64,000 bases of DNA from Escherichia phage CJ20: the sequence record MT533174.1. One strand, given 5' to 3'. The notes beneath the pieces are model-generated. The model was not told where the DNA came from. It did no database searches and worked only from the letters and a program-made list of their open reading frames with translations. Shown one piece after another: positions 32,546 to 59,857 of the stretch; the first letter of the stretch is position 1; every line of letters begins with the position of its first letter. The translations under genes and the position numbers were made by a program.

Positions 32546-32621
32546 GGCCCTGTAGCTCAATTGGTTAGAGCATCCGGCTCATAACTGGCAGGTTTCCGGT
32601 TCAAGTCCGGATGGGGCCACC
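32546..32621 (+). tRNA. tRNA with anticodon CAU (Met, or Ile if the C34 is lysidine-modified as in the T4 tRNA-Ile)
   Basis: Hand-folded cloverleaf: acceptor GGCCCTG/TGGGGCC, D stem GCTC/GAGC, anticodon loop CTCATAA, T arm TCCGG-TTCAAGT-CCGGA, discriminator A plus CC; one mismatch in the anticodon stem. Confidence 0.75.
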
Positions 32622-32698
32622 CGGGGTGTAGCTTAATTGTATAGAGCAACGGTCTTCTAAACCGTAGGTTGTGGGTTAGAATCCCGCCACCCCGACCA
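32622..32698 (+). tRNA. tRNA-Arg (anticodon UCU)
   Basis: Hand-folded cloverleaf with all stems pairing: acceptor CGGGGTG/CACCCCG, D stem GCTT/GAGC, anticodon stem ACGGT/ACCGT with loop CTTCTAA, T arm GTGGG-TTAGAAT-CCCGC, discriminator A and encoded CCA. Confidence 0.82.
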
Positions 32699-35788: not shown

Positions 35789-36382
35789 ATGAATACTTTA
35801 AAGAAAATTGTTGAATTCATCCGCTCCAAACTGGGTACTGCAATGGCAAAAAACCTGTCTATTGAAGACCAATATACTCAAGCGGCTTCTACCCTGATTG
35901 ACAAGATTACTGAGCTCCAGACTGCCCACGTTAAGTCTATTAATGAAGAAAAACGCATCCGCGAGTTGGCGAATGAAAAAGACCAACTGGCAGCTTCAAA
36001 AGAGCGTGAAATCCGCAAACTGATTGCTGATGGTGCGGATGTCCAGGTCCATGCTAAACTGGGTCTCCTGTATCGCCGCACCGCTAAACAACTTCGTAAG
36101 AAGGCAGATGATTATGTTGAAATGCGTAATGAAATTAAATTGAAAGTTAAAGAGCTGGATGACTCTCGTCAGGAACTAGCTGTTAAACTGGAATACATCC
36201 GCGAAACCCGTAAAGTATCTGCTCTGGGTATTGCGACCGCAGATGATGTTGTTGAAATCGCTGCATTGACTAAGATTGATATTGAAGACACTCTGATGCG
36301 TGTTGAAACCTTCAAAGGTCCACAGGTTGGTGTGGATACCACGTCCGCTGACATTGAAGAATACATCAATTCACTTAAGTAA
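35789..36382 (+). CDS. coiled-coil protein, 197 aa (possibly PspA/IM30-like; unverified)
   Basis: [50 protein letters not shown]... predicted almost entirely alpha-helical with heptad character; followed by a GGGGGC-TTT-GCCCCC hairpin. Confidence 0.6.
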
Positions 36383-36424
36383 GATAAAGGGGGCTTTGCC
36401 CCCTAATTGGGAGAGGAGAAAATT

Positions 36425-36979
36425 ATGAGCTTATATACTGACCTTATATCAAATGTAGACTGGTTTGGCGGTAGTGGTCTTGCTACTGAAACTAATACAG
36501 TTCTTTATAGAATCCGCGGTGATTTGGGTTATTCCAATGATTTCTTAAGAAGAACGACAAGTCGCGGTGATACTACAAAATTGCCTTTTATTTTTGCTTT
36601 AGCTGAAGACCTTTCTTTTGCAGATGCCTTGGAAATTATTGATGTAAATCTGGGTATTCAACGAGTGGAATTCGCTGGACTACGTTATTCAGTATATGCT
36701 TTAAACGAGAGCGATGATTGTATACTTCTTAATATGGCAGATGATGATTACCATTTAGTATGTTATGTGACGCTAGAAAATGGTGATGTATTTGGAATGG
36801 TTGACCGCCGGCCAGCTTATACTGATATTAAAAATTATGATAAAGATGAGCTTACTATTTTGGCTAATGAGTACACATTAGAGAGTCGTAAACGGAAACG
36901 TAAGCTTAATCGTTTTATTGCTGAATGTCGTGAATATGCTAAAGGGGTTCATAATGCGAACGTTATATCTGCCAAGTAA
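36425..36979 (+). CDS. hypothetical protein, 184 aa, with C-terminal ...LNRFIAECREY tail shared with three downstream membrane proteins
   Basis: ATG at 36425 after GAGAGGAGAA (the ORF track starts at TTG 36407); MSLYTDLISNVDWFGGSGLATE... Confidence 0.6.
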   Translation: MSLYTDLISNVDWFGGSGLATETNTVLYRIRGDLGYSNDFLRRTTSRGDTTKLPFIFALAEDLSFADALEIIDVNLGIQRVEFAGLRYSVYALNESDDCILLNMADDDYHLVCYVTLENGDVFGMVDRRPAYTDIKNYDKDELTILANEYTLESRKRKRKLNRFIAECREYAKGVHNANVISAK

Positions 36980-37313
36980 ACCAGAAAAATTTGTATACGC
37001 AGACAAGATTGATAAAGACCTTATGCCTCCATTTGGAGCTTTGTCCATGTGCATCGTTGGGGTTATAATGATGGTGCTTTGTGGGGATATGAATATCATT
37101 AGTGTTGGAGTCGCCTGGACGCTAGTAATTGCAGCTCCTTTTATTACAGTCCTGTGTATGGTATTGATAAATGTGTGGCATCAAAATCATATGAATAAAG
37201 GTTATCGTGGGCGAGTTAAAGCGTGGGAACAAAAATGTGTTTCCCTGCAAGAAGAGCACAAAATTAAATGTGCCGAAGAATTTATTAAGGAGGTTCGTAA
37301 TGGAACGGCCTAG
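36954..37313 (+). CDS. small membrane protein, 119 aa, two predicted TM helices, C-terminal ...EEFIKEVRNGTA
   Basis: ATG at 36954 overlapping the end of the previous gene (MRTLYLPSKPEKFVYADKID...); hydrophobic segments MCIVGVIMMVLCG and WTLVIAAPFITVLCMVLINVW. Confidence 0.6.
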   Translation: MRTLYLPSKPEKFVYADKIDKDLMPPFGALSMCIVGVIMMVLCGDMNIISVGVAWTLVIAAPFITVLCMVLINVWHQNHMNKGYRGRVKAWEQKCVSLQEEHKIKCAEEFIKEVRNGTA

Positions 37314-37653
37314 TCTTGCATCACATGTTTATCAATTGGTTGAATATGATATTGGTGCCAATTTATTATTAGGGATTGTCACTGCCATGCTTGGTGGTTT
37401 GGTTGGTCTGGTAATGACCACGGTTATGGCTGCAATCGAGGGAGTCATGCCCATTGAGATGGGTTTCTTTATGATAATCGCTCCGGCTGTTGTGTCTTAT
37501 TTTATCCCTGTTGTGTATGATATCTGTCACACAAATGCCGTGAATGCTCCTAGTCGGAAGAGATACGCTTCAGCAATGGCTGAGTATAATAAGTTCCTAG
37601 ACAAAACAAAACGTAATGACCTTGAAACCTTTATTAAGGAATGTAAATCATGA
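37300..37653 (+). CDS. small membrane protein, 117 aa, two predicted TM helices, C-terminal ...LETFIKECKS
   Basis: ATG at 37300 after AGGAGG (MERPSLASHVYQLVEYDIGANLLLGIVTAMLGGLVGLVMTTVMAAIEG...). Confidence 0.6.
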   Translation: MERPSLASHVYQLVEYDIGANLLLGIVTAMLGGLVGLVMTTVMAAIEGVMPIEMGFFMIIAPAVVSYFIPVVYDICHTNAVNAPSRKRYASAMAEYNKFLDKTKRNDLETFIKECKS

Positions 37654-37940
37654 ATAAAATTGAAATTGCTATCCCCAAGTATTATGATGAGAAATCTGCA
37701 GAAAAAGCCATCTATTCTCTTCTAAATAAGACCTCTGAAATTGAAAAACACTGTGAAGAAATCGCAGATGAATATGGTATCCAATTCGGTACCGGTGATT
37801 ATGGTTCAGGCCGCACATATTATCCTGTCGGTTATGAATGCTCCCAGTGGTTTAAAAATGAAATTGAAAACAACGGTGGTGAAGTTGAAAACGGTGTCGT
37901 TACAGTTGGTGCTTGGGTCTCCTCTTCGGCAATGTGCTAA
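37650..37940 (+). CDS. member 1 of a tandem four-gene family, 96 aa, C-terminal ...GAWVSSSAMC
   Basis: ATG at 37650 in ATGA overlap with the previous gene; MNKIEIAIPKYYDEKSAEKAIYSLLNKTSEIEKHCEEIADEYGIQF... Confidence 0.65.
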   Translation: MNKIEIAIPKYYDEKSAEKAIYSLLNKTSEIEKHCEEIADEYGIQFGTGDYGSGRTYYPVGYECSQWFKNEIENNGGEVENGVVTVGAWVSSSAMC

Positions 37941-37949
37941 GGAAACGCT

Positions 37950-38231
37950 ATGATGAATGATTACCGTAAAAATAAAGAACTGGCTAACGCAGTAAATGAC
38001 ATCCATAAAGCTATTCGTCGTGCCGAGGAAATTGCAGACAAATATGAGACTCATTTTAATATATACCCTGCTCGCGGTATGGGCGGTGACTATTATTCTC
38101 CTGGCGCCTTGAAAGCTGACCTTGCCCATTGGGAAGAACATGGTCATCCTGAATGGGCTATTGTTAATACTCATGACTATACAACTGACCTGGAAAATGG
38201 TGGTTGGGTGTCCTCCTCTTACGAATGCTAA
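37950..38231 (+). CDS. member 2 of a tandem four-gene family, 93 aa, C-terminal ...GGWVSSSYEC
   Basis: ATG after the TAAGGAAACGCT junction; shares EEIADKYETHF and the C-terminal tail with member 1. Confidence 0.65.
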   Translation: MMNDYRKNKELANAVNDIHKAIRRAEEIADKYETHFNIYPARGMGGDYYSPGALKADLAHWEEHGHPEWAIVNTHDYTTDLENGGWVSSSYEC

Positions 38232-38240
38232 GGAAATAAA

Positions 38241-38468
38241 ATGACTGCTAAAACTGTTAAAGAAATTGAAAACCAAATCCGTGCACTAATCTGTGAAGGT
38301 GAGCAGCTGGCCGATAAAACTGGTGAATACTTTCATGTGTATGCTGATAGTCTTCAACGATATATTCCCGCAGGTTGTCCAGAATATGAAGAATATGACT
38401 GGATTCGCGGTGATTACGGTATCCCAGATGGTAAAGGCTTCTGGTTTAACTCCTCTATGACTTGTTAA
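38241..38468 (+). CDS. member 3 of a tandem four-gene family, 75 aa, C-terminal ...GFWFNSSMTC
   Basis: ATG after the TAAGGAAATAAA junction; MTAKTVKEIENQIRALICEGEQLADKTGEYFHVY... Confidence 0.65.
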   Translation: MTAKTVKEIENQIRALICEGEQLADKTGEYFHVYADSLQRYIPAGCPEYEEYDWIRGDYGIPDGKGFWFNSSMTC

Positions 38469-38477
38469 GGTGATAAA

Positions 38478-38711
38478 ATGACTACTGCTGTTGAACATGC
38501 TGAATTAGAAAAAGCTGCCCTTGAACTGGCTGCGCTGTATAAGAAAGTAAAAGATATGGCTTCTGCCCAAGATTTCGGTGTTGAGCTTGACGATTATGAT
38601 GGCGAAGTCCGTCTTGAAGATTGGTTGAATAGCTCTTGTTACGGTGAAGAAGCTGGTCGTACCTTCGTTGCTCGTGCCGATGGTAAAATCTGGTACCCGA
38701 GCTCATGCTAA
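38478..38711 (+). CDS. member 4 of a tandem four-gene family, 77 aa, C-terminal ...KIWYPSSC (also has an internal WLNSSC)
   Basis: ATG after the TAAGGTGATAAA junction; MTTAVEHAELEKAALELAALYKKVKDMASAQDFGVELDDYDGE... Confidence 0.65.
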   Translation: MTTAVEHAELEKAALELAALYKKVKDMASAQDFGVELDDYDGEVRLEDWLNSSCYGEEAGRTFVARADGKIWYPSSC

Positions 38712-38932
38712 AATTAAAGAAAAGATATATTCGTAAAATAAATGGTCTTCGTGATTATGCCAAAGGTTGGCCATTAAGTATTATTATGGCTGATAGACAT
38801 CCACGTTATAATAACGAGTTGACTTATTACAAAAAGTATGATTCGTATTGTCGGTCTAAAGCGGGTCGTTTAGATGGTTCCTATGAAGAATATTTCGGTA
38901 AAAAACCTACTCGTATTTCGTTAGGAAAATAA
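38705..38932 (+). CDS. hypothetical protein, 75 aa
   Basis: ATG ORF overlapping the previous stop (MLKLKKRYIRKINGLRDYAKGWPLSIIMADRHPRYNN...). Confidence 0.5.
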   Translation: MLKLKKRYIRKINGLRDYAKGWPLSIIMADRHPRYNNELTYYKKYDSYCRSKAGRLDGSYEEYFGKKPTRISLGK

Positions 38933-38962
38933 TTTAATCACAAGGATGTGGTAGGAGGAATT

Positions 38963-39292
38963 ATGCATAAAGATTCGGTATTCAAATATCTTTTGAAAAC
39001 AGATAAAGAATTCTATATGAATGGGCAAGCCTTCTTGTTCGTTCGTGGTAAACGTGAGATGTTTTACAAATGCGACCTCTCAATGCATCATCATATGTAT
39101 CATACCCACGGTGAGCATATACTGGGGTTCTCCGGTGACGAGACTAGACATATAGCTATGTACTATGACCATTTTAAGCTTAATGATTGTGGTGACAATG
39201 CTTTAGTCTGGAACTCATCTTGGCGCCGATGGGACGTAGTAGACAACAATAAATTATTTTTAGAATATTGTCGAAGCAGTATACAAGTCTAA
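38963..39292 (+). CDS. hypothetical His/Cys-rich protein, 109 aa
   Basis: ATG at 38963 after GGAGGAATT (MHKDSVFKYLLKTDKEF...CDLSMHHHMYHTHGEH...); possible metal-binding cluster. Confidence 0.55.
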   Translation: MHKDSVFKYLLKTDKEFYMNGQAFLFVRGKREMFYKCDLSMHHHMYHTHGEHILGFSGDETRHIAMYYDHFKLNDCGDNALVWNSSWRRWDVVDNNKLFLEYCRSSIQV

Positions 39293-39356
39293 AAAACTGT
39301 GTTACTATACTCCTATCAACTGATGACAATCACGTTATCAGAACAGGAGAATAAAA

Positions 39357-39557
39357 ATGTCTATCGCAAACGAATTAATCAAAGTTCTGAACGAAGCCAA
39401 AGTCAACCAACTGGAGGTTAATCTCCAGGAAGTTTCTGATGGCATTAAAGTAACCATCAGTGGTGATTACGCAGGCGTCACAGAACGTGTTTGTGATTCT
39501 CTGGAAGAAGTAGTTTCCTGCATTAAAAGAGATATTTACGCATACGGTATTATTTGA
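39357..39557 (+). CDS. hypothetical protein, 66 aa
   Basis: ATG after AGGAGAATAAAA (MSIANELIKVLNEAKVNQLEVNLQE...). Confidence 0.55.
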   Translation: MSIANELIKVLNEAKVNQLEVNLQEVSDGIKVTISGDYAGVTERVCDSLEEVVSCIKRDIYAYGII

Positions 39558-39567
39558 GGAAAATATT

Positions 39568-39798
39568 ATGTGGTATTACGCCCCAATGGCTGATGAGCCC
39601 GTAAAAATTAGTCGTGCTAAGTTTACAAAGATTTACGGTCTCGTTTATAAGAAGTCTGATTACGGTGTTCGTTTTGAAGATGCGCACTGTATCAACGACC
39701 CTTATAATGAAGACCTCTATGGCAAATTGGTTCCTATCGTTAAGGGGTCCGCTTCTGAGATGATAGATGAATCTAATATCTCTGCTGCTGAAATTTAA
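39568..39798 (+). CDS. hypothetical protein, 76 aa
   Basis: ATG after GAGGAAAATATT (MWYYAPMADEPVKISRAKFTKIYGLVYKK...). Confidence 0.55.
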   Translation: MWYYAPMADEPVKISRAKFTKIYGLVYKKSDYGVRFEDAHCINDPYNEDLYGKLVPIVKGSASEMIDESNISAAEI

Positions 39799-39816
39799 GT
39801 TACTGAGGAAAATATT

Positions 39817-40776
39817 ATGATGTTAGTTATTGGCTCTCGCGCATTGCATAACGCCGGTCTGATTGAAAGTAAGAAAATTGAAAACTCTGATTGGGACTTT
39901 ATAGCAGACCAAGGTTCCTGGAACAACTTTAAAACCCAGATGATGGGGCAGCATGTTCCTGTGGATAACCCAGATGTGCAAGCTTTTAAGTGTATGCACA
40001 ACGGTAAAGAAACCTATTTTGAAGCATACATCGTCCGAGCCCTGACAAGTGTTCGTGAGCTGACTGATGAGCTACAAGAGGAAGATTTTACTTCCAGTTA
40101 TCGTCTGCTCAAATATGCGAAGGCAAATATTCAGAAAGACCGTCTATCTGGTTTTTACTGGGCGACCCCTGATATTTGTCTGGCAATTAAATTGTCTCAT
40201 CGTTACCTGAAGAACAATCCATTCTTCCTGAAGACAATGAGCCATATTAATTACCTTCGTAATAAGGGTGTTGTTCTTAATGATGAACTACAAAAAATCA
40301 TGCAACAACGACAGGCAGAAACACTGTCATATAGCCACCCTAAACTAGACGTGGGCAAGAAAACTTTCTTTAATGATACAATCTATACCCTTGACCATGA
40401 CTCCATCCACGAGGCCGTGGCGCTTGCTGATAAGCCTGCATATAAGTTCTATATGAAGGATGATTCAGAAGTTATGACCTCGCGTGAAAAATTTGAAGCA
40501 CTCCCTGAGATTATTAAACTGGCAGGGGTTTATGAAGAAGCATGTGTGCTCGCTCTGGAGCGTTCGCAGGTTCCTAATGAGTTCAATATTTCTCCATCCG
40601 TGAGCTTCCATATTGCACTGGAAAAAGTCTGTACCTCCATTACTTCTGGATGGTTCCGTGAGTATGCCTGGGAACATTACCAGGAAGTGGTTAATATGTA
40701 CAACACCCTGGGTCACGAAGACTATGTTAAACGTTTCAAGGCTAACCAACATTTAATTCGTCCTTTCGAAAAATAA
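39817..40776 (+). CDS. hypothetical protein, 319 aa (N-terminal G-S...D-W-D pattern is at best a weak nucleotidyltransferase-like hint)
   Basis: Long ATG ORF after GAGGAAAATATT (MMLVIGSRALHNAGLIESKKIENSDWDFIADQ...); no family confidently recognised. Confidence 0.7.
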   Translation: MMLVIGSRALHNAGLIESKKIENSDWDFIADQGSWNNFKTQMMGQHVPVDNPDVQAFKCMHNGKETYFEAYIVRALTSVRELTDELQEEDFTSSYRLLKYAKANIQKDRLSGFYWATPDICLAIKLSHRYLKNNPFFLKTMSHINYLRNKGVVLNDELQKIMQQRQAETLSYSHPKLDVGKKTFFNDTIYTLDHDSIHEAVALADKPAYKFYMKDDSEVMTSREKFEALPEIIKLAGVYEEACVLALERSQVPNEFNISPSVSFHIALEKVCTSITSGWFREYAWEHYQEVVNMYNTLGHEDYVKRFKANQHLIRPFEK

Positions 40777-40778
40777 TT

Positions 40779-40808
40779 GTGTACATCCAAGTGGGGCTAT
40801 GACACAAT
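40779..40808 (+). promoter_or_regulatory. T4-type early promoter (PeSL-like cassette)
   Basis: -35 GTGTAC (40779-40784), 18-nt spacer, -10 CACAAT (40803-40808), RBS GAGGAAAATATT before the ATG at 40836. Confidence 0.5.
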
Positions 40809-40835
40809 GGTCCCACAATCAATGAGGAAAATATT

Positions 40836-41528
40836 ATGAACAGTCCAAAAACTTTTAATAGTCAAATGCGTGAAGTTGGTCAATTTGCTCAATATGTCAG
40901 TAATGACGAAATCAAAAATGAACCGATGTTCTTTAACTGCTATCCAGAATTTGCGCATAAGCATGGTGGCCCAATCACGCGCAGTTTTCTTGATAACCTA
41001 CCAAAAGAATGGACTGATGGTCCTGATAATTTGGTGTTTGACTCTCGCGTCCATATGTTGATGCCTGGTTGGTATCCTGCTATCCCTGGGTATCACCATG
41101 ATGATGTACCACGTCCAGATATTCCAGCAGGACAACATTTTATTACAGCAGGACAACCTGATTATGATAACCCTCGTTACCATTCTGAACACATCCTGGG
41201 TCTGGTTAACGCTTCTGTTTGCCCTACTAATTTTGCTCTGGGAACTTCAGAATTCAGTCAGATTCCTGATGGCGAACTTATCTATCGCCAGTGGCACCAG
41301 GAAGTTCTGGAAAAAATCAAGGCGGGTGAACTTTTAGTTCAAGAAGCTCCTGACCGCACATTATGTGAATTCAACTGGCAGACCTGGCATACTGGAACAA
41401 AAACAGTTAGTAACGGTTGGCGCTGGTTTGGTCGCGTATCTCGTAAAACAGACCGTGTTAATAAAGTTACCAATGAAATCCGCGTTAATGCTCAAGTATA
41501 TCTGGAATTCCCCATGGAGGGCTGGTAA
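40836..41528 (+). CDS. hypothetical protein, 230 aa
   Basis: ATG ORF (MNSPKTFNSQMREVGQFAQYVSNDEIKNEPMFFNCYPEF...); no family recognised. Confidence 0.7.
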   Translation: MNSPKTFNSQMREVGQFAQYVSNDEIKNEPMFFNCYPEFAHKHGGPITRSFLDNLPKEWTDGPDNLVFDSRVHMLMPGWYPAIPGYHHDDVPRPDIPAGQHFITAGQPDYDNPRYHSEHILGLVNASVCPTNFALGTSEFSQIPDGELIYRQWHQEVLEKIKAGELLVQEAPDRTLCEFNWQTWHTGTKTVSNGWRWFGRVSRKTDRVNKVTNEIRVNAQVYLEFPMEGW

Positions 41529-47411: not shown

Positions 47412-47954
47412 ATGAAAAAAGTAATAGCCACTTTACTATTGACAGTTAGTATGTCTGCCCATAGCGTAGAGCCTACTTTCAGTAATGAACAAATGGAAAA
47501 TCTTCAATATGCTTATGCGTTTGGAGAACAGTTCCAGAAAAATGGTAAGTACAAAGAAAATCCGCACCAACATAATGGTTTGGGATATATCATGGCTGGT
47601 TTAACCTGGCAGGAATCATCTGCTGGTGTTAATACAGGATTAAATAAAGATAAGCATCATGCATATGGTATATTCCAAAATTATCTTCCAACCGTGCGTG
47701 AGCGCGTAAAACAGGTTGGGTGGACAATGACAGATAAAGAAATAATCAAGATGATAAGCAAGAGAGAGAACAGTGCACGCTGGGCTTATATTGAGCTTTC
47801 ATACTGGTTGAACATTCACAAGGGGGACATAAGAAAAACACTATCATCATATAACGCAGGGTGGAATGTGAAAGCTGGAAACACGTATGCTTCGCAAGTC
47901 CTAGAAAAAGCTAACTACTTAAAATCACGAGGCCTATTAAAAACGGTGGATTAA
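47412..47954 (+). CDS. secreted lytic transglycosylase (SLT-domain)-like protein, 180 aa
   Basis: N-terminal signal peptide MKKVIATLLLTVSMSAHS; SLT motifs in order: catalytic E-S (TWQESSAG), GIFQ (GLMQ-like) and SYNAG (AYNAG-like). Confidence 0.7.
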   Translation: MKKVIATLLLTVSMSAHSVEPTFSNEQMENLQYAYAFGEQFQKNGKYKENPHQHNGLGYIMAGLTWQESSAGVNTGLNKDKHHAYGIFQNYLPTVRERVKQVGWTMTDKEIIKMISKRENSARWAYIELSYWLNIHKGDIRKTLSSYNAGWNVKAGNTYASQVLEKANYLKSRGLLKTVD

Positions 47955-48314
47955 ATGGTAAGAGTCATAACTTTAGCCATAGGGTTAGTATTTAGCACGG
48001 GAGGAATAGCTTCAGTACAGAGCGATGATAATAATAGCATCATAGAATATGCAACGAGGACGGCCAAAGATTATTGCGCATCAAGCAATGTGGATTGTGT
48101 AATCCAGTTCAGTGCCAAACTCACTGCTGCCTATAAAGACGGTCAAAATGATGTTGAACACACTCTTATGAAAAAGAGTATTTTATCCAACAAATATGAA
48201 AAGAAACTATTTGAAATGGATTGTATTCTGTCGAGTGCCAAATATAAAGCGGCCTGTACCAGTATGGTTGACAGGTTAGTCGATTCCTATAACAGAGGAT
48301 TGAACTCTAAATGA
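47955..48314 (+). CDS. secreted/periplasmic Cys-containing protein, 119 aa
   Basis: ATG 1 nt after the previous stop; signal-peptide-like N-terminus MVRVITLAIGLVFSTGGIASVQS. Confidence 0.6.
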   Translation: MVRVITLAIGLVFSTGGIASVQSDDNNSIIEYATRTAKDYCASSNVDCVIQFSAKLTAAYKDGQNDVEHTLMKKSILSNKYEKKLFEMDCILSSAKYKAACTSMVDRLVDSYNRGLNSK

Positions 48315-59388: not shown

Positions 59389-59552
59389 TTGAATTATCGT
59401 TGGGTGTTTTGTATCTTATCATCGGTATTGGTTATGCTAAGACCCTAGCTAAATTAGATGATTTCGGTGCAGGTGACTTTTGTTGGTGGCTGACGTCTAT
59501 GATTTGTTGGCCTTTATTTCTGGTTGGTGCTTCATTCTGGAACTTTAAATGA
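59385..59552 (+). CDS. small membrane protein, 55 aa (below the ORF-track size cut-off)
   Basis: ATG at 59385 overlapping the nrdC stop; MIELSLGVLYLIIGIGYAKTLAKLDDFGAGDFCWWLTSMICWPLFLVGASFWNFK; its stop overlaps the next gene's ATG (ATGA). Confidence 0.45.
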   Translation: MIELSLGVLYLIIGIGYAKTLAKLDDFGAGDFCWWLTSMICWPLFLVGASFWNFK

Positions 59553-59857
59553 TTGAATTAAGCGGACAAACAATTTATCTGGGCGATGGCAACGAAGACG
59601 ACCTGGAATATAAACTCTACGAATACATGGTCGCCCTGGCGAAAGCAGAAGGTATTGACTTTGCTGTGGCTAACCCGTATGGTGAGAACACTGTTGTAAT
59701 CGGCGGCACTGCTTATGAAGTCCAATGGCAATACGTTGGGCTTGAATCTGAAGAATATGAAGAAGATAAGCATGGCGATTGGCATCCGGTTGGTCCTTGG
59801 TACTGGGACGACGGTGAGCCTGATTTTGAAGTATCAAGCTATTGGAGTGACCAATGA
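59549..59857 (+). CDS. strongly acidic protein, 102 aa
   Basis: ATG ORF (MIELSGQTIYLGDGNEDDLEYKLYEYMVALAKAEGIDFAVANPYGENT...), about a quarter Asp/Glu. Confidence 0.6.
   Translation: MIELSGQTIYLGDGNEDDLEYKLYEYMVALAKAEGIDFAVANPYGENTVVIGGTAYEVQWQYVGLESEEYEEDKHGDWHPVGPWYWDDGEPDFEVSSYWSDQ

Follow-up and report, generated by a model that had tools for sequence, protein, structure and literature searches.

What do four small, strongly diverged genes that stand in a row in the genome of Escherichia phage CJ20 do for the phage, and what reads the tail of tryptophan, serines and a final cysteine in which all four products end? The genes lie in a stretch of 64,000 nucleotides (sequence record MT533174.1; hereafter the window) of a T4-like phage that shares ~96% identity with Shigella phage SP18 and Escherichia phage P896. 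In the in silico analysis described here, all four products, which we call Cys-tail proteins, match PHROG 899, a family of unknown function, and genes of this family are almost always found beside a gene for a DUF7277-DUF7275 protein with a nucleotidyltransferase fold, with which they probably form an undescribed, two-part, phage-restricted module. We tentatively favour the reading, to which we give a little less than an even chance, that the Cys-tail proteins are clients of this enzyme, that their shared tail is recognised and probably modified on Ser or Cys, and that their type-specific bodies lead to different targets. The array consists of the following features:

37650..37940, + strand: Cys-tail protein type A, 96 amino acids (aa), ending ...GAWVSSSAMC; phrog_899, E 5e-23
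37950..38231, + strand: Cys-tail protein type B, 93 aa, ending ...GGWVSSSYEC; phrog_899, E 4e-20
38241..38468, + strand: Cys-tail protein type C, 75 aa, ending ...GFWFNSSMTC; phrog_899, E 1e-14
38478..38711, + strand: Cys-tail protein type D, 77 aa, ending ...KIWYPSSC; phrog_899, E 9e-10
37938..37952, + strand: stop/Shine-Dalgarno/start junction TAAGGAAACGCTATG, read from the sequence, with equivalents at 38229-38243 and 38466-38480

The open reading frames (ORFs) agree with an initial annotation made from the sequence alone, which had described four consecutive plus-strand genes of 96, 93, 75 and 77 aa, their four tails, and an EEIAD(E/K)Y core in the first two (CEEIADEYG in copy 1 and AEEIADKYE in copy 2). 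The near-identical TAAGG...ATG junctions that it reported at spacings of 8-10 nt were also found, each gap being exactly 9 nt (3/3: TAAGGAAACGCTATG, TAAGGAAATAAAATG and TAAGGTGATAAAATG) with the pattern TAAGG(A/T)...ATG, and the ATG of type A overlaps the stop codon of the preceding e.3-like gene (ATGA). Its description of tandem, diverged paralogs with a strictly kept W/S-S/C tail is borne out by an alignment of the four, in which identity to copy 1 is 24-31% and the only invariant columns are M1, D40, W89, S92, S93 and C96; W-x-x-S-S-(x0-3)-C stands at the C-terminus or one residue from it in all four copies. The profile alignment to phrog_899 covers the C-terminal part (positions 133-221) for each of the four, and type D carries two copies of the motif, an internal DWLNSSCYGEE and the terminal IWYPSSC.

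Beyond the window, 1.84 billion representative proteins were searched exhaustively with the family profile (threshold E <= 1e-3); this gave 249 clusters at 50% identity, with alignments that nearly always reach the last residue of the protein. A terminal Cys stands exactly at the end of 169 of 181 family sequences, 160 of which in all end in W-x-x-S-S-x-x-C. Mean column identity in a 118-member alignment is 21%, yet W89, S92, S93 and C96 are invariant, and A39, G54 and Y57 are conserved in at least 90% of members; as had been proposed from the four copies, the tail is, by this alignment, far better conserved than the rest of the protein. The motif codons vary synonymously (Ser as TCC, TCT, TCG, AGC or TCA, Cys as TGC or TGT), and the constraint therefore acts on the protein. 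Family members are acidic, cytoplasmic proteins of 65-100 aa (median isoelectric point 4.5) with an N-terminal amphipathic helix of variable length that ends in AExIADxYG, a Gly-rich hairpin YGMGGTYYP or a variant of it, an acidic linker that often holds extra W-x-S-S-[DEC] repeats, and an exposed tail G-x-W-x-S-S-S-x-x-C-COOH. The AlphaFold2 model of type A has a predicted local distance difference test score (pLDDT) of 90.6, and its lower confidence in the tail (76, against 96 in the core) fits an exposed position of the tail.

The conserved tail residues, Ser and Cys, are nucleophiles. The initial annotation had suggested metal or thiol chemistry, or a recognition degron, for the tail; an intramolecular metal or disulfide site is judged unlikely because half of the family has a single Cys, the terminal one being the only Cys in 92 of 177 representatives. 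Its impression that the proteins belong to no characterised family held up, since searches of Pfam, NCBIfam and PADLOC gave no match above noise, the Protein Data Bank (PDB) none by sequence or by fold, and the literature no paper on PHROG 899 proteins, their RB69 and JS98 ORFs or the tail motif.

Several outlying sequences were noted during the family searches. Profile-matching variants without a terminal Cys end in ...DYGWN[IV] or ...DYGWDL (phiPsa347, locus L025 1732-2163, and IMG/VR loci L069, L080-L082, L087, L092 and L096-L097), and another variant ends in ...WISSSICW (IMG/VR loci L070-L072, L095 and L110). In the metagenomic protein P0055 (153 aa), a stretch that matches UvrB residues 376-439 (E 2e-15) had raised the thought of a domain fusion; since the near-identical P0115 occurs without this stretch, P0055 most likely results from a chimeric assembly. 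P0236, with DUF1190 and DUF7275, was set aside as uninformative. The similar C-terminal GEPDFEVSS[WY]W at window 59549-59854 and T4 47826-48131 (gp49.3) attracts the family profile weakly (E 0.05-0.2), and both are non-members.

The partner gene became apparent from the surroundings of the family genes. In the window it is represented by:

39817..40776, + strand: DUF7277-DUF7275 protein gene (phrog_2141), 319 aa, predicted nucleotidyltransferase, 1.1 kb downstream of the array

Thirteen loci were found through a DNA pattern coding for YGMGGTYYP, and at all nine with readable sequence on the expected side an ORF of ~300 aa starting M-x-[LI]-I-G-S is present there; in environmental loci it begins just after the family genes, with the pattern M-x-L-I-G-S-x-A...D-x-D, and five of five such ORFs that were scanned are DUF7277-DUF7275 proteins. 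In the reverse test, 80 IMG/VR loci were chosen solely by two enzyme peptide motifs, and in 74 of them one to six family ORFs lie on the strand of the enzyme gene and no more than 4 kb upstream of it; around the enzyme gene in these 80 loci, 239 family ORFs lie upstream, 3 downstream and none on the opposite strand. A profile-free count over 72 non-redundant loci gave Cys-ending ORFs in 192 of 697 cases upstream (27.5%) compared with 7 of 565 among the downstream controls (1.2%; Fisher p 9e-46). The pairing also occurs in GenBank phages of unrelated lineages with different flanking genes, which were chosen by the enzyme alone and carry the following numbers of Cys-tail copies beside it:

Otagovirus phiPsa347: at least 4
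Phapecoctavirus EP57: 3
jumbo phage Munch (350 kb): 1
Acinetobacter phage KARL-1: 2-3
Stenotrophomonas phage YB07 (L119 4665-5457): 2-3, downstream of the enzyme gene

Adjacency is therefore conserved while gene order, as in YB07, is not absolute. The pairing is not ordinary synteny, because the remaining genes around the module in the window recur at just 1-24 of 86 loci that have the enzyme. The remark in the initial annotation that the family was not recognised from T4 was also apt, as neither the Cys-tail family nor the enzyme was found when the whole T4 genome was checked. Two T4 genes, nrdC.3 with its similar length and nrdC.11 with its annotation as a nucleotidyltransferase, were weighed as possible counterparts of the enzyme and rejected, the enzyme profile having no match in T4 (best E 0.8, to other ORFs).

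With 2,063 clusters at 90% identity and 731 GenBank phage records, the enzyme family is a large one, and the window protein scores 256.1 and 94.7 bits for DUF7277 and DUF7275, where the Pfam gathering cut-off is 27. Its AlphaFold2 model (pLDDT 90.8; predicted template modelling score, pTM, 0.84) matches MenT toxins, ANT(2'') and LnuA, and has the pol-beta nucleotidyltransferase fold with hG[ST], DxD and a third carboxylate, as in MenT and AbiEii. Residues D25, D27, E69, K125, H128, H194, D195, H198, E240, E241, E248 and R249 are invariant, G6 and S7 reach a conservation of at least 90%, and the KVCTSITSGWFRE block is conserved, so that the enzyme, with its catalytic motif intact in the model, looks active. 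It has no match in NCBIfam or PADLOC, a sequence-level PDB search found nothing, and no paper mentioning the DUF7275/DUF7277 enzyme was found in the literature. A DNA-pattern scan for the enzyme motif in one genome per species of 100,044 bacterial and archaeal species gave two hits, both on contigs of metagenome-assembled genomes, one of which also has three Cys-tail ORFs; in silico, the module is restricted to phages.

Some enzyme residues vary together with the presence of the small genes. Among 13 aligned homologs, which all have the catalytic core in common, R/K129, R165, H174, C272, S277 and R281 are present in 8/8 homologs with Cys-tail neighbours, and the same six positions are replaced in 4/4 without them (Vibrio phages PG216 and K408, Streptomyces phage BillNye and Gordonia phage Bachita). 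These residues fit a partner-specific surface, for example with arginines for the terminal carboxylate and His and Cys near the terminal Cys. One IMG/VR lineage (L075, L076, L084 and L104) has the enzyme and no Cys-tail gene within 4 kb; its aligned member, the L075 enzyme, carries D193Q and W279R at otherwise invariant positions, and the L084 enzyme gene is split into two ORFs, changes that may represent decay after loss of the partner. In Brevibacillus phage Sundance, an acidic protein ending in EEEYSSSYYEEEEYSSSYYEED is encoded (L031 2156-2437) just upstream of a remote enzyme homolog that retains C272, S277 and R281; this ending may be an aromatic-Ser-Ser-Ser analogue of the tail without the Cys.

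Comparison with relatives distinguishes five paralog types, A-E, of which A-D are the four in the window and type E (65 aa, MSRELDCA...GWVSSSYxC) is absent from it. Copy number at the syntenic locus differs among relatives (4, 5, 4, 3 and 2 copies), as the initial annotation had led one to expect, and the arrays are ordered as follows:

Window and phage 212: A-B-C-D
SP18, JS98 and dhaeg: A-B-E-C-D
ECML-359: A-B-E-D
RB69: A (frameshifted)-B-E
Klebsiella phage Marfa: A-B-D-C-x-E
Aeromonas phage AS-zj: A-D

Each of the types has orthologs in Dhakavirus, Gaprivervirus, Mosigvirus, Marfavirus and even Aeromonas phages, so that each is an orthologous lineage of its own across genera and the copies are ancient paralogs. 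The pairwise, gene-wide ratio of nonsynonymous to synonymous substitution rates (dN/dS) between orthologs is 0.0-0.65 overall and below 1 for every type, which points to purifying selection on each gene as a whole. Type A is 100% identical to its SP18 ortholog and 88% to that of JS98 (dN/dS 0.11), type B has a dN/dS of 0.13-0.37, and type D (0.03-0.17) has orthologs in Marfa (70% identity) and Aeromonas AS-zj (47%). The fastest-evolving is type C, with a dN/dS of 0.48 and 56% identity to its dhaeg ortholog, where types A, B and D reach 85-93%. Because each type is separately conserved across genera under purifying selection, the bodies of the paralogs are not redundant. These results do not sustain the earlier interpretation of the array as the outcome of local amplification and rapid divergence in an arms race. 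Nor does the array look like a recently amplified segment of the kind known from anti-defence loci (SegB-type, in the tRNA region of T-even phages; PMC13096335), for which near-identical tandem copies would be expected; those in the window share 24-31% identity and have orthologs in other genera.

The absence of type E from the window left a trace:

38205..38220, + strand: 16-nt repeat TGGGTGTCCTCCTCTT, coding for W-V-S-S-S; recombination scar of type E loss

SP18 has the same 16 nt at the ends of both type B and type E, and in the alignment the window DNA tracks SP18 type B until TGGGTGTCCTCCTCTT and thereafter the end of type E and its downstream junction. This pattern indicates that the window lost type E by recombination across the WVSSS-coding repeat, and the resulting hybrid B/E end is the reason why copy B of the window ends in YEC, like type E, and not in SEC. 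Copy number is dynamic, and the repeat within the motif codons itself serves as a substrate for the recombination by which cassettes are gained or lost. The RB69 type-A copy (L002 4989-5295) is split by a frameshift into ORF139c and ORF138c and has the tail WVSSPALC, with Ser changed to Pro; it is probably a decaying copy. In JS98 (NC_010105; L022 1454-1669), an intact type-C gene ending in ...GFWFSSSMSC is unannotated in the reference record.

According to the client reading, all paralogs would offer the same tail to one enzyme, which would recognise W-x-S-S...C-COOH and most likely nucleotidylylate, or else phosphorylate, a Ser or the Cys of the tail; the divergent bodies A-E would then direct each paralog to its own target in the infected cell, as effector or adaptor. 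The nucleotidyltransferase link strengthens the suggestion that the tail serves as a functional tag. Expression of the genes probably precedes late transcription and takes place within the e.6-e.3 operon, since no late promoter TATAAATA occurs on the + strand between 30121 and 50220, sigma-70-like sites lie upstream of the array at 34.4-35.4 kb, and the array is tightly coupled to the e.3-like gene. A nucleotidyltransferase regulated by a small helical partner has a precedent in MenA1 acting on MenT1 (PMC11375011). Several observations nevertheless weigh against the client reading. In structure, the enzyme is closest to enzymes whose substrates are tRNA 3' ends or small molecules rather than proteins; five or six loci with the enzyme lack any Cys-tail gene at a distance of up to 4 kb, and remote enzyme homologs occur in Gram-positive and Vibrio phages without the partner. 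In the window itself, four unrelated ORFs intervene between array and enzyme gene, which lie 1.1 kb apart. The co-variation of residues comes from a small sample (n=8 vs 4) and is confounded by phylogeny, and the suggested timing of expression is read from the absent TATAAATA nearby and the sigma-70-like sites upstream.

The enzyme fold and the gene order speak for a rival explanation, in which the enzyme would be a toxin of the MenT/AbiEii type, blocking tRNA 3' ends for example, with the Cys-tail proteins as its cognate inhibitors or timers; alternatively, they would neutralise AbiEii/MenT toxins of the host. MenT toxins add nucleotides to tRNA 3' ends and are controlled by small, diverse antitoxins, of which MenA1 uses one helix to set off auto-phosphorylation at the G-T motif (PMC11375011); here, the Cys-tail could plug the active site, or the helix could, in the manner of MenA1, induce auto-phosphorylation of the G-S motif. 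We consider this explanation possible but on the unlikely side. The most conserved element of the small proteins is the nucleophile-rich tail and not the helix, and one to six non-redundant paralogs per enzyme, each an orthologous lineage of its own, are atypical for an antitoxin; moreover, the genes in T4-like phages are neither adjacent nor translationally coupled to the enzyme gene. The enzyme lies outside the sequence profiles of MenAT and AbiE, the known pairs of a DUF1814 nucleotidyltransferase and a small partner, with no AbiEii/DUF1814 match in Pfam (E <= 0.1) or PADLOC, and no sequence or fold similarity to MenA1-4 or AbiEi was found for the Cys-tail proteins, which are further set apart by their invariant W-SS-C-COOH tail. 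Finally, the module is found in lytic phages, whereas MenAT and AbiE reside in bacterial chromosomes.

If the enzyme were instead a bystander, the small proteins could be, as the initial annotation had proposed, host-takeover or anti-defence effectors, here independent of the enzyme, whose tail docks a host factor or binds metal or thiol, the proximity of the two genes reflecting co-transfer of early-gene cassettes. This would suit small, acidic and probably early proteins in a hyperplastic region, with a copy number that varies among close relatives and with recombination at the motif codons, and it would accommodate both the faster evolution of type C (dN/dS ~0.5) and the four unrelated ORFs between array and enzyme gene. 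It is harder to reconcile with a pairing that persists across lineages with no other common neighbouring genes, with the conserved direction (239 upstream vs 3 downstream), with a T4 that is without both parts, with enzyme residues that track the presence of the partner and with a gene-wide dN/dS below 1 for every type, and we hold it to be rather unlikely. A role as virion internal or structural accessory proteins, comparable to the internal protein (IP) genes that flank the region in T4-like phages, is very improbable, even though IP-type genes lie nearby in SP18 and the Cys-tail proteins are likewise small and acidic. The T4 capsid-targeting sequence is MKTYQEFIAE, which the N-termini of A-D (MNKIEIAI, MMNDYRKN, MTAKTVKE and MTTAVEHA) do not resemble; the late promoter expected of such genes is missing as stated above, and the family also stands beside the enzyme gene in phages that are not T4-like.

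The client reading can also be compared with known modifying enzymes. In HepT-MntA (a type VII toxin-antitoxin system) and in GlnE/GlnD, a nucleotidyltransferase of the pol-beta fold acts on a side-chain hydroxyl of its partner, which is the chemistry proposed for the tail Ser; in the present case the partner is neither a HEPN RNase nor PII nor glutamine synthetase, the acceptor motif, enzyme family and setting differ, and the modification is so far a proposal. ANT(2'')-Ia (AadB) and LnuA act on small-molecule antibiotics and are without a DUF7275-type C-terminal domain or protein partners. A bolder version, which we consider quite unlikely, is a new phage protein-modification system in which the nucleotidyltransferase would activate the tail Ser as an O-linked nucleoside monophosphate (O-NMP) and the folded clients would become effectors against host factors or defences; the product could be a stable protein-nucleotide conjugate or, if elimination is followed by attack of the terminal Cys, a lanthionine-like S-x-x-C ring at the C-terminus. 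Lanthipeptide S-x-x-C rings include the C-terminal AviCys (S-aminovinyl-cysteine) ring of epidermin, and the S-x-x-C-COOH spacing of the tail equals that of lanthionine and AviCys rings. Several small paralogs with one motif beside a single enzyme gene also recall multi-precursor clusters of ribosomally synthesized and post-translationally modified peptides (RiPPs). In contrast to RiPP precursors, however, the Cys-tail proteins are folded (pLDDT ~90), acidic and 65-100 aa long rather than leader-core peptides, and their conserved part is the putative site and not a leader. No LanB/C/M/KC/L/D-type gene was found among the tested window ORFs (35789-41525), for which Pfam gave DUF7277 and DUF7275 only.

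The surroundings of the array in the window contain the following further features:

36918..37653, + strand: e.4-like and e.3-like predicted membrane protein genes (phrog_2604 and phrog_2330), named after the SP18/RB69 annotation
38705..39798, + strand: four small ORFs of 75, 114, 66 and 76 aa between array and enzyme gene

The overlapping e.4-like and e.3-like ORFs are weak paralogs, as seen from cross-hits between phrog_2604 and phrog_2330; on the T4 map, e.2 follows directly after e.3. The four intervening ORFs have no match in Pfam, NCBIfam or PADLOC and have homologs in just 1-12 of the 86 enzyme-bearing loci; they are lineage-specific filler and not conserved parts of the module. A minus-strand ORF of 156 aa at 37806-38276, antisense to copies A and B, is regarded as spurious because the longest antisense open stretch varies between 91 and 176 aa in relatives and the plus-strand frames have a dN/dS below 1. 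The position of the locus between tRNA genes and nudE, as given in the initial annotation, was recovered, with tRNA-Met and tRNA-Arg upstream (32546-32698) and ORFs in the nudE/e position downstream by synteny with SP18. The two tRNA genes are directly adjacent in the window, and RB69 likewise has Met and Arg only; tRNA-Asn is considered missing from the window because the syntenic site of SP18 has Met-Asn-Arg.

Both protein sets are already held in databases under the label 'unknown function' (PHROG 899 on the one side, Pfam DUF7277/DUF7275 and PHROG 2141 on the other), and the enzyme fold and the layout of a nucleotidyltransferase with a small partner are of known kinds; neither the literature nor the databases yielded an account of the tail hallmark, of the paralog types, of the recombination scar or of how the two families pair. 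Large lytic phages that infect Gram-negative bacteria carry both families in abundance, neither of them with a described function; among the hosts are E. coli, Klebsiella, Acinetobacter, Aeromonas and Pseudomonas, and phages of these hosts serve in therapy. Linking the two turns anonymous hypothetical proteins into a testable system made up of a single enzyme and several clients, whose tail of eight residues ends in an invariant Cys, and the 16-nt motif-coding repeat offers a concrete mechanism for the gain and loss of cassettes in the hyperplastic regions of T4-like phages. If the small proteins regulate a MenT-like enzyme, lytic phages would be using toxin-type nucleotidyltransferases, and if the bolder version holds, they would encode RiPP-like chemistry that acts on whole proteins. 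If the tail is indeed modified, the module would represent a new kind of phage-encoded protein chemistry.

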